Below are positions 42,001-45,000 of a DNA stretch of 64,000 nt, piece by piece (the stretch's first letter is position 1; the number at the start of each line of letters is the position of its first letter). The stretch lies in assembly GCF_057098645.1 (NCBI RefSeq), contig NZ_CM169472.1. One strand, written 5' to 3'. The position numbers are program-made.

Positions 42001-45000
42001 TCTGCCCAGTCCGGGCAGGCCGTGCTCCACACAGGTATCATCCGTTGCCCTCATTATCATTATTCACCACCAGGCGGGGTGGTGGTGGCACCGCAAAACG
42101 GTTAGCCGCTTTTTTCGCCGCGTCACCTTTTGCCGATTTTTTACCGGCATCCCCTTTTTTATGGTGCGTGAACTGCGCCAGCTTATAAGCCGCATCCAGC
42201 GCCAGCCTGGGGTCGGTATTAATGTTCTCCACCAGAAGACGCCCCATCGCTTTCACCGGATCGGGAAGACCATCCTCCATATATTCAATACCAGGAGACA
42301 TCACCGCGGACGGTGGCATCTCCGGATTGTTTTCGTCCGGCTGTGGTATTGCAGCCGCCTCACGGCGACGGGGTTTATCCTCCTGCTCTGATTTTTTCTG
42401 CCGGTAAACAGGAACCTCATCCACCTCCACCGTCTCGCATTGTTTACGGGCTATAAACGCAAGCACCTCCGGATCTTTTGCCAGCTGCGAGCCTTTAACC
42501 CTGGCGGTCTTCGCCGAATAACCAGCGGCAATGGCTGACGCTGTTTTGTTTTTCCCGGACATGAGCGCCAGCGCAAATTTTCGTTTTTGCGTTGTCAGCA
42601 CAGCCTCCTCCCGGGTCCAGAACGCACTCAGCCGGGTATGGTTCAGCCCATTTTTCCCGGCGTCTCATGCCGCAAATGTTAACTGCTGCCTGGTTAACAT
42701 TTGCTGAAAAAGCCAGTTAACATTTTTTCCGCACAACAAACTGAATAATAAAGATAAAAACCGCAAAAATGCCCGGACAGCCAGTTAACATGTTAACTGC
42801 CCTGAAACGGGAATTTTTTCTCTGCGTGAGAGGGGGCGCGGTGTCCGGGGCGATCGTTTTTTTCGCCGGATGATCCCCCCCCCGGGGCGGGTCACAGTCC
42901 GATGATATCGTCTGCCCTGCCATGACCTCCGGACACCTCCGGCAGCGTCGGGTCCGGCATACCACTCGCCGTTTCACTGACTGACTTCTGGCGATGGCAT
43001 TCGGTACAGAGCGTCCAGAGATTCGTCTCCTCATTACCACCACCGAACTGAAGTGCAATGCGGTGATCGAGTTCACTGTCACAAAGGTCAACCACACGCC
43101 CACAGAGACAGCACTGTCCGGCATCCCTCAGCCAGATACGACGCTTGAGGGAAACCCGGGCACTGCCACTGACCCGACGCTGTTCACCCTTCAGGACATT
43201 CACCCGCCGGGTATTCAGAGTTTTGATTCTGCTCTGGAGTGTACGAAGCTCAGCCATGTAAAATCCCCGTCATATAACTTGTCACCAGAGGAAAGAAAAT
43301 GTCATCGAAAAACCGGACCCGCAGAACCACAACCCGCAATATCCGTTTCCCCAATCACATAATTGAACAGATCAACATCGCCCTTGAGCATAAAGGGTCC
43401 GGTAACTTTTCAGCGTGGGTTATTGAAGCCTGCAGGAGAAGGCTGGCAACAGATGCAACGCATCTGCGCCCGGCCAGCATGACAAATAACGAGAAATGAA
43501 CGTTCGGTTTCTTCCACCATCGCACCGGACAGGCGACTATGAGGGGACAACGCCGCGCTCCGTTAACGCGGTAAACCCCGGTGTGTATCGTTTTTGATTA
43601 TCCCCGCACACTCGCGCAGAAGGAATTCCCCGTCGGGCTACGGTCATGGTTAATGCGGAAATACAGCGACGATACAGCGCATGATGTGTCAGGCTTGAAT
43701 ACCTTTATCCGTTAAAAGGGATATCAGTTAAGTTATCCCGTGTAGGGTATAAGCCATTATCAAGCCCACCAGTAGATGGGCTTTGTAATGGCTACTTCGC
43801 TTTTGCTTCCGCTCGCTTACGCCGGCGCTCTTCTTTCCTCTCGGCTTTTGCCATGTCCATGAATGCCTGCATGATCGAGTTCCGCATCATGTAGCTAACA
43901 AAGTGATGATTGACACAGCCGTTGAGGCGCAGCTGCTCGCCAAACTCATCCACCGAGGCCAATGCTTCCATCATACCCTTCTCGCCTTTCATGAACTCTG
44001 AGAAGTCGCGCCCCGCTCTGGAGGCGCATTCAATGACACGATCACTCATCCCGGAAGTCCGGGGATCGAAATCTGCAACTGGTTAGCCAGGGAGTTAATT
44101 TCAGCGATCAAACCAGGTTTCGTGTAGCGCCATGCCGCGAGGCCTTGTCCACAGAAGCTCGCCATGTCTTTTTTCTGATCAAACTCATGACATTTCATGT
44201 TGAGCTGCGCACTTAAGCTGTTCCGATGATGAAGCTCTCCGGTGAAGTAATCATCGAGGACTTTATAGGCTGCATATTTAAATCCGGGGTTTAGCCATGC
44301 TGCGTAATCATAAGCAACGAACTTTCCGCCATAAGTTCCACCGTGCGCACCGCGTTCCGTAAAAACCACAGATTCGTGGTTTTTCTCCAGCTCAGCCAAG
44401 AACTCTTTGGTCTGCTTGTTTCGCAGGTAGTGGTACGGAGATTCAGATTCACTTTTACCACTGGCTTTCCACATATCAGTGAGGCAGATCATGCCATCTT
44501 CACCGATACGGATTGGTTGATTGAAGAGGGTTAATGATTTCATAGCGTGTACCTACTCTTTGAAATGAACCTTTGCCGCACAGGAAACCAGCCCACCGAG
44601 GCTCGCCAGCACTAACTGGTATCCTCAAAGGCCCATTCCAAAGGGGCAGGTTCGGTGTAAAAAACATGCGTTGCGGTACGCATTTATTGCAAAAAGCCCC
44701 GCATCGCGAGGCTCATTAAATGGACTTTGTGATTTGCAAAAAAAATTATTTCAGGCATTGCGTCCTGATGTACTCCTGCAGGTAGTTAACCTGCGCGGTT
44801 ATCTTGTCGATTCCACCTCGGAGACGGTAATAATTGAGTTCAGCATCTGCTGTAAGTCCTGGGCTTTCTCCATCGCCCATGCTGCTGGCTCCGGTCGTTG
44901 ACTTTGCACAGGTGGCGGAGACTTGCAGGCGCTTACGCCCAGCAGAAACATCAGCACGGAGACTTTCGATAGTCGCATTAGCATCAGCAAGCTCCTTTGT

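Follow-up and report, generated by a model that had tools for sequence, protein, structure and literature searches.

The window analyzed here is a 64,000-nucleotide stretch of contig NZ_CM169472.1 (NCBI RefSeq assembly GCF_057098645.1). Between the gene for an HNH endonuclease and the small-terminase gene terS, it holds what is very probably the cohesive-end (cos) site of an Escherichia coli prophage, part of an HNH-associated packaging module of the HK97 type as found in the Shiga toxin (Stx)-phage 1717/2851 group. The cos site itself is of an ordinary, already known kind, and a near-identical phage, Lys8385Vzw, has published ends. New, as far as we have checked, are the exact cut in the window, a G-run that resembles the lambda termination element cosQ and is common to HK97, and the lineage-specific origin of an array of GTTAAC sites. 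The mapped Lys8385Vzw ends fall inside the interval in which the first-pass annotation, made from the sequence alone, had placed a putative cos region, and they support that proposal. The cut, however, is placed at 42831-42840, in neither of the two elements highlighted there, a C9 tract and a set of GTTAAC repeats.

A predicted cut site at the position of mapped phage ends

The predicted cut site (cosN) occupies positions 42831..42840 on the minus strand, which also carries the packaging genes (hereafter the gene strand). Cleavage would leave a 10-nt 3' cohesive end, 5'-CGCGCCCCCT-3' on the gene strand, with nicks expected between 42831 and 42830 on the minus strand and between 42840 and 42841 on the plus strand. 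The Stx1-converting phage Lys8385Vzw has been induced and sequenced, classed as cos by PhageTerm, and assigned the 3' cohesive ends CGCCCCCCCT at its genome end (PMC7946995). Base 1 of its record (MT225100) corresponds to window position 42830, and from there downward 71 of 71 bases are identical. The record starts CTCACGCAGAGAAAAAATT... and ends ...GGACACCGCCCCCCCT, while the window reads ...GGACACCGCGCCCCCT^CTCACGCAGAG (carets mark the boundary), CTCACGCAGAG being also the opening of the record. In the record of Burkholderia phage Bcep176, whose TerS is of the same family (37% identical), CGCACGTTCC stands at both ends and is followed by CTCACGCGCAGAAAAT, which marks the homologous column. 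The D3 record ends GGACACCGCGCCCCCA, and that of phiE125 ends GGGAC^CGCCCGCTTC. Because the mapped ends of Lys8385Vzw and the record ends of Bcep176, D3, and phiE125 agree, we place the cut at 42831-42840. A 10-base 3' extension has been published for phiE125 (PMC2920897), and HK97 has 10-nt 3' overhangs, its HNH protein gp74 stimulating cos cleavage in vitro (PMC9410871). Two points tell against this placement: the cut is positioned by homology, and the overhang CGCGCCCCCT differs at one base from the mapped CGCCCCCCCT of Lys8385Vzw.

The records of vB_PR2a and vB_E184 were not used as evidence for the ends, as their starts are arbitrary, near cos. A GTTAAC palindrome on the terS side was considered as the cleavage site and rejected in favor of 42831-42840. 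No lambda-type 12-nt 5' cohesive end resembling GGGCGGCGACCT was found in the interval, where TerS is of the Terminase_2 family and the large terminase, TerL, of the HK97 class. In a literature search with the overhang 10-mers, the matches listed were all eukaryotic and unrelated.

The overhang is polymorphic among close relatives (loci L003-L082): 40 distinct loci have CGCGCCCCCT, 17 have CGCCCCCCCT, and 13 have CGCCCCCCGT. Because an E. coli genome may carry up to 8 copies of the region, co-resident prophages may yield mismatched cohesive ends.

The left end varies with the small terminase and the right half is shared

The first 20 bases past the cut (+1..+20; 42811..42830, minus strand) form a left-end block, CTCACGCAGAGAAAAAATTC, with an A6 tract at 42814-42819. 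This block shows the highest conservation within cos (91% mean column identity) in a profile built from 48 diverse loci with TerS proteins only 35-49% identical. HK97 has one TerS site of 15 bp, at +15..+29, which contains an A-tract (PMC11331095). Because the block is the most conserved one and the HK97 TerS site also lies in the left end, 42830-42811 with its neighborhood is likely to be the primary TerS recognition site.

The other half of cos behaves differently. The right half, from the G-run to GAC(AC)^CGC, is common to HK97, D3, phiE125, Bcep176, and the present prophage; the TerL proteins of phages with this half are homologous (21-23% identity), and in all of them an HNH gene is the last before cos. 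The left half differs by TerS type, these types being unrelated: GTTTGAATTTAACGCTAACCCGATTTTTTT in HK97, GGTCTTTTTCCATTTCC in D3, and CTCACGCAGAGAAAAAATTCCC in the present TerS family. Thus, the right half stays the same in phages with three unrelated kinds of TerS and the left half follows the TerS type; the probable reader of the right half is TerL, HNH, or the portal. A shared right half and a TerS-specific left half amount to a concrete, testable division of labor for packaging of the HK97 type.

A GTTAAC array restricted to one E. coli lineage

The five GTTAAC repeats that the first-pass annotation had listed upstream of terS are indeed present and cluster beyond what random placement gives. 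They start at 42678, 42693, 42716, 42784, and 42792, make up 5 of the 16 copies in the whole 64 kb, and span 42678-42797, within 120 bp between the HNH gene and terS. When 16 sites were placed at random, five never fell within 125 bp (0 of 200,000 placements); the maximum was four, reached in 9 trials. Two copies take the form CCAGTTAACAT (42713-42723 and 42781-42791), as described; the remaining ones had all been called inverted, which holds for 42676-42685 and 42790-42799 but not for 42691-42700, which is oriented as the CCAGTTAACAT copies are.

The copies share the unit ATGTTAAC. On the gene strand, direct cores lie at 42784-89, 42716-21, and 42693-98, and inverted cores at 42792-97 and 42678-83. 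Past the left-end block, two cores form a perfect 18-bp palindrome, CAGTTAACATGTTAACTG (42782..42799), which is followed by an AT-rich spacer (42724..42781) with two A5/T5 tracts (42756-42760 and 42765-42769) and then by three further GTTAAC sites of direct and inverted repeat families (42672..42723), with CAGTTAACAT at 42714-42723. The latter segment also includes an inverted repeat with 12-nt arms, GCAAATGTTAAC (42672-42683) and GTTAACATTTGC (42693-42704).

Relatives outside the E. coli lineage have a single GTTAAC, at +41/+42, about 40 nt past the cut, where it is the start of terS itself (GGAGGG-N6-ATG TTA ACA, M-L-T). The window copy at 42784-42789 occupies exactly this ancestral start position; its Shine-Dalgarno (SD) sequence is gone, and the real terS starts ~190 bp further. 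The gene-strand ATG at 42791..42789 therefore reads as a fossil of the ancestral terS start (ATG TTA AC, M-L-T), and it is followed by TGTCCGGG, which is also found early in the real terS. The extra segment of ~190 bp (42602-42781) contributes three more GTTAAC copies and the two A5/T5 tracts; it occurs in the E. coli lineage only and is absent from FSL SP-016 and from loci L123-L171. The five-copy array is likewise confined to the E. coli Pankowvirus-type lineage. By this comparison the array is a derived feature of that lineage. The fossil start and the extra segment point to an old event, recombination or duplication, by which the start of terS was shifted.

What the array does is a matter of graded likelihood. 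By analogy with the R sites of lambda, we tentatively regard the GTTAAC copies as functional accessory TerS sites, similar to cosB; the two inverted copies and the perfectly symmetric arrangements favor selection for a binding site. The degree of conservation speaks against such a function. In the E. coli lineage, the GTTAAC units are almost invariant, but with 1 of 38 positions variable as compared to 21 of 171 in the flanks, the difference is not significant (p=0.14). No match to the consensus of the integration host factor (IHF), WATCAANNNNTTR, with at most one mismatch was found in 42600-42900, which leaves the analogy with lambda cosB incomplete.

The array could also be evolutionary debris, left when recombination or duplication shifted the terS start ~190 bp downstream and copies of the old start region (ATGTTAAC...) remained behind; the copies would then bind nothing, and TerS recognition would reside wholly in the conserved +1..+45. 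This would account for the single GTTAAC of all non-E. coli relatives being simply their terS start, for the position of the 42784-42789 copy and the TGTCCGGG that follows it, for the match of 15 of 16 nt between the copies at 42711-42726 and 42779-42794, and for the lack of significant excess conservation in the GTTAAC units. We nonetheless consider it somewhat less likely than functional TerS sites. Simple tandem duplication does not make the two inverted copies that build the 18-bp palindrome and the 12-nt-arm inverted repeat, the upstream half of an ancestral near-palindrome (GTAAAC) became a perfect GTTAAC in the E. coli lineage, and the clustering lies far beyond chance.

A role of the GTTAAC sites as operators, through which some other DNA-binding protein (a ribbon-helix-helix-like DUF3950/YlcI product or a host factor) would control terS expression rather than packaging, is improbable. 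The repeats are symmetric and lie 75-200 bp upstream of terS, and a small divergent DUF3950 gene adjoins the HNH gene, as such a role would have it. However, DLP12 has the same gene next to its lambda-type cos but lacks a GTTAAC cluster there, and we therefore rejected a tie between the sites and the DUF3950 gene. Nor is there a convincing promoter: a scan of 42400-43700 for promoters and terminators gave one weak promoter-like match, as compared to 0.9 expected, and no terminator. The late genes of lambdoid phages are, moreover, read through from pR'. A scan of 42300-43800 against Rfam gave no match at E<=1.

The DUF3950/YlcI gene lies at 43299-43499 on the plus strand; its counterpart in the DLP12 prophage of strain K-12 is ylcI (NC_000913.3, 580251-580445), and both are divergent and just upstream of cos. 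The gene is tied to the cos neighborhood whatever the terminase type, HK97-type here and lambda-type in DLP12. Judged by eye, its protein (NIRFPNHIIEQINIALE...SAWVIEACRRRL) resembles a DNA-binding protein of the ribbon-helix-helix type.

A G-run at a fixed distance from the cut

The first-pass annotation had also pointed to a GATC-C9-GGGGCGGG element beside the HNH gene. It is found at 42872-42891, directly abutted by the HNH stop, with the C9 run at 42875-42883 as the sole G/C homopolymer of at least 8 in the 64-kb window. On the gene strand, this is a G9 run (42875..42883, minus strand), the last G of which lies 44 nt from the top-strand cut.

The position of the run is conserved. We compared 101 distinct relatives with enough upstream sequence, namely the E. 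coli group and 50 diverse loci with TerS 35-49% identical. All 101 have a run of at least five Gs whose last base lies 43-45 nt from the cut; the background frequency of such runs is 0.68 per kb. In the profile of the 48 diverse loci, G is invariant at -48..-46, while the spacer from run to cut is only 57% conserved. HK97 has G9-GATCAAATC 42 nt before its 3' end, and all 71 distinct loci of the HK97 TerS family keep a G-rich run at the HK97 position, mostly G6-G11. In phiE125 the run is found at -42; that of D3, at -40, is interrupted. Thus, a poly-C/G run is conserved in all HK97-type cos sites examined, which cover the lineages of HK97, D3, phiE125, the Bcep176 group, FSL SP-016-like phages, and the Stx-phage group.

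The length of the run is not fixed in the same way. It varies from 5 to 11 among the 101 loci and from 6 to 11 in HK97 relatives, and even close relatives differ, with 9 in the window and 7 in Lys8385Vzw. The length polymorphism implied by the first-pass annotation, which called the C9 tract potentially slippage-prone, is real, but a mere slippage tract it is not, since it is a position-conserved sub-element of cos. That the tract would be a phase-variable contingency homopolymer or itself the cleavage site is highly improbable: apart from the variable length among relatives, it sits between the HNH stop and cosN with its 3' border fixed at 43-45 nt from the cut in every one of the 101 loci, and the mapped ends are 44 nt away. 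Because the tract is in no gene and serves as no promoter spacer, it is not a switch.

A few bases upstream of the run, many members of both TerS families carry an inverted repeat, ATGA(G/T)AAT..ATT(C/A)TCAT. It is found in loci L124, L126, L154, L162, L221, and L242, and also in D3 (L253, ~655-672) and DLP12 (L255, ~4590-4610). The window lacks the repeat; there, the HNH stop and the G-run are directly adjacent. In the lambda-type cos of DLP12, the same inverted repeat is followed by TTTGT-GGGTCCT, 23 nt before the cut. We take GGGTCCT to be cosQ, which in lambda is a conserved 7-bp site.

Because this layout matches that of lambda cosQ, we read the G-run as a putative cosQ-like termination element; its position is observed, and its function is suggested by the analogy. 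The poly-G run, at about 40-45 nt upstream of the top-strand nick in these lineages, may be a general termination element of phages with HNH-assisted 3' cos cleavage, a counterpart of lambda cosQ with a fixed 3' border and a free length. Recognition and nicking of the terminal cosN could follow either because TerL, HNH, or the portal reads the run or because the motor is slowed by the unusual geometry of a G.C homopolymer. A point against is that lengths of 5-11 require any length-dependent mechanism to be tolerant; part of this variation may be homopolymer sequencing error. The segment from the G-run to the cut forms no special hairpin upon single-strand folding (z-score 0.01). The G-run is not mentioned in the HK97 packaging papers PMC9410871, PMC11331095, and PMC10359639, although it may have been described elsewhere. 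As a candidate termination signal, the G-run is open to direct testing in the in vitro system available for HK97.

The interval from the HNH stop to the cut contains two GATC (Dam) sites, at 42852-42855 and 42872-42875. The latter abuts the G-run, as in HK97 (G9-GATC), and the former (CGATCG) is moderately conserved in diverse relatives. In PPompW-type prophages, an insertion sequence of the IS110 family, ISEc20, sits exactly in the G-run (LC567822.1, 15712-17170; locus L254, 913-2371; window position ~42879). The order there is Q, three tRNA genes, ISEc20, and cosN-terS, with the lysis genes and HNH missing. A breakpoint in the IMG/VR locus L017 falls in the same place. The G-run could be a target for IS110 elements or a hot spot of recombination.

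Genes of the packaging and head module

The final gene before cos (42892..43257, minus strand) encodes an HNH endonuclease of 121 amino acids (PF01844, E=2e-6; PHROG 589 HNH, E=3e-42). The gene ends in a TGA stop (42894..42892) immediately next to the G-run element, stands beside the terminase genes and cos, and is separated by 290 bp from terS on the minus strand. The protein is 95% identical to the HNH of Lys8385Vzw, a functional phage, and 34% to the Orf96 HNH of D3.

The terS gene (42038..42601, minus strand) has a GTG start behind the SD sequence GGAGGAGG and encodes 187 amino acids (PF03592 Terminase_2, E=1.5e-8; PHROG 641, E=3e-68). Its product has an N-terminal helix-turn-helix and is 99.5% identical to Lys8385Vzw TerS. 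The only matches to TerS in a sequence search of the PDB were weak ones to the SF6/SPP1 DNA-binding domain (E=0.2-0.8).

The terL gene (40380..42041, minus strand) encodes 553 amino acids with ATPase and nuclease domains of the HK97 class (PF03354 and PF20441). TerL matches the HK97 TerL structure 6Z6D (E=2e-9) and aligns with HK97 gp2 by BLASTP at E=4e-11, with 23% identity over 490 amino acids; identity to D3 TerL is 21%. Beyond terL lie a prohead protease-major capsid fusion (38379-40316, minus strand; PF04586 and PF05065) and a portal gene (36803-38167, minus strand; PF04860, E=7e-81). The head module is thus HK97-like, with an S78 protease, an HK97-fold capsid, and a PF04860 portal, and this module (36803..40316) is served by the cos site at 42831-42840.

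Assignment to the HK97 type meets two objections. The HNH protein matches HK97 gp74 at a marginal E=0.057, too weak for us to accept it as a gp74 orthologue, and TerS shows no similarity to HK97 gp1, being a PF03592 Terminase_2 protein and not a small terminase of the gp1 type. As judged from such comparisons, the packaging module appears HK97-like in TerL, HNH, and the right half of cos, and not in TerS or the left half. Headful (pac) packaging, with the region a mere intergenic spacer, is the least probable reading of all, for while Terminase_2 small subunits are best known from the pac phages SPP1 and SF6 (to which the PDB matches are weak), TerL is of the HK97 class, near-identical Lys8385Vzw was classed as cos by PhageTerm (PMC7946995), and the Bcep176 record, with TerS of the same family, has defined ends that repeat the same 10 nt.

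The gene order in 36803-42041 (minus strand) is unusual in that terL is followed by the protease-capsid fusion and then by the portal. A 461-amino acid open reading frame (ORF) after the portal gene (35421-36806) has marginal and implausible Pfam matches. Upstream of HNH lie the divergent DUF3950/YlcI gene and a KilA-N/ORF11CD3 gene, as well as what looks, from the ORFs alone, like a lysis cassette.

The prophage belongs to a widespread family

The element is a lambdoid prophage of the Pankowvirus/Stx-phage 1717-2851-BP-4795 group. E. coli PEC240 has a prophage that matches the window at 100% identity over the surrounding 751 bp, and the DNA from HNH through cos to terS is 97-99% identical to that of 1717, BP-4795, 2851, YYZ-2008, and many Stx1a/Stx2c prophages, several of which are classified as Pankowvirus. 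Identity of 97-99% to the window cos region is found in 92 phage records. Of 5426 complete E. coli genomes, 1283 contain the region, and a single genome can have as many as 8 copies. In the more distant FSL SP-016, only the cos core aligns with the window as DNA (80%), and the flanking terS is 49% identical as protein.

Many prophages with this region carry Shiga toxin genes, and the packaging site is the one expected of a very common type of E. coli prophage. Knowledge of the exact cut and its sub-sites helps to predict cross-packaging of co-resident prophages, defective prophages, and satellites, and hence the movement of stx genes.

A model for cos recognition, cleavage, and termination

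Late transcription and packaging would both proceed on the minus strand of the window. In this direction, the predicted order is HNH, the G-run (42883..42875), a 34-nt spacer, the staggered cut (42840..42831), and the left-end block with its A6 tract (42830..42811), followed by the GTTAAC palindrome (42799..42782), the AT-rich spacer, three GTTAAC sites (42723..42672), and terS. The helix-turn-helix N-terminal domain of TerS would bind the left half and recruit TerL. TerL and HNH would then make two nicks 10 nt apart, yielding 3' overhangs with CGCGCCCCCT on the gene strand, and packaging would start from the terS side. At the next cos, the G-run would enter the motor ~44 bp ahead of the cut and, acting like cosQ, aid recognition and nicking of the terminal cosN.

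Four parts of this model are observed directly: what the genes are, how the region corresponds by homology to mapped ends, the constant distance of the G-run from the cut, and the confinement of the GTTAAC array to a single lineage. Which protein reads which sub-site is our proposal, and the present prophage is presumed to be still active.

Comparison with known packaging systems

As compared to D3, Bcep176, and phiE125, the window has in common a G-rich run followed by GGACAC^CGCGCCCCC in D3 and by GAC^CGC in the others, and an HNH gene as the last before cos. The Bcep176 group further shares the TerS family and the left-end block CTCACGCGCAGAAAAT, whereas D3 has another TerS type and another left half. 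The five-copy GTTAAC array is found in none of the three.

Lambda presents the same order of a termination element, a nick site, an array of TerS sites in mixed orientation, and the small-terminase gene, the functions being presumed for the window. It also has a G-rich element upstream of the cut, preceded in relatives of the window by the same ATGAnAAT..ATTnTCAT inverted repeat. In contrast to the window, lambda has a 12-nt 5' overhang, the Nu1/gpA terminase, and no HNH; its cosQ, GGGTCCT, lies 23 nt from the cut, and an IHF site stands between R3 and R2, where none was found in the window.

HK97 differs from the present prophage in an unrelated TerS and an unrelated left half of cos, with a single 15-bp TerS site and no GTTAAC array. 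It also has ~320 bp between HNH and the cut, whereas the HNH stop in the window abuts the G-run. What the two share is HNH as the last gene before cos, a homologous TerL, and an HK97-like capsid, protease, and portal. They also share 10-nt 3' overhangs that begin CGC after GAC, G9 followed by GATC ~42-44 nt upstream of the cut, and an A/T tract in the first 30 bp of the left end. Closest of all is the Lys8385Vzw/Pankowvirus group: the published account of Lys8385Vzw gives only the 10-mer and no sub-sites (PMC7946995), but the sequence on both sides of its mapped ends is as in the window.

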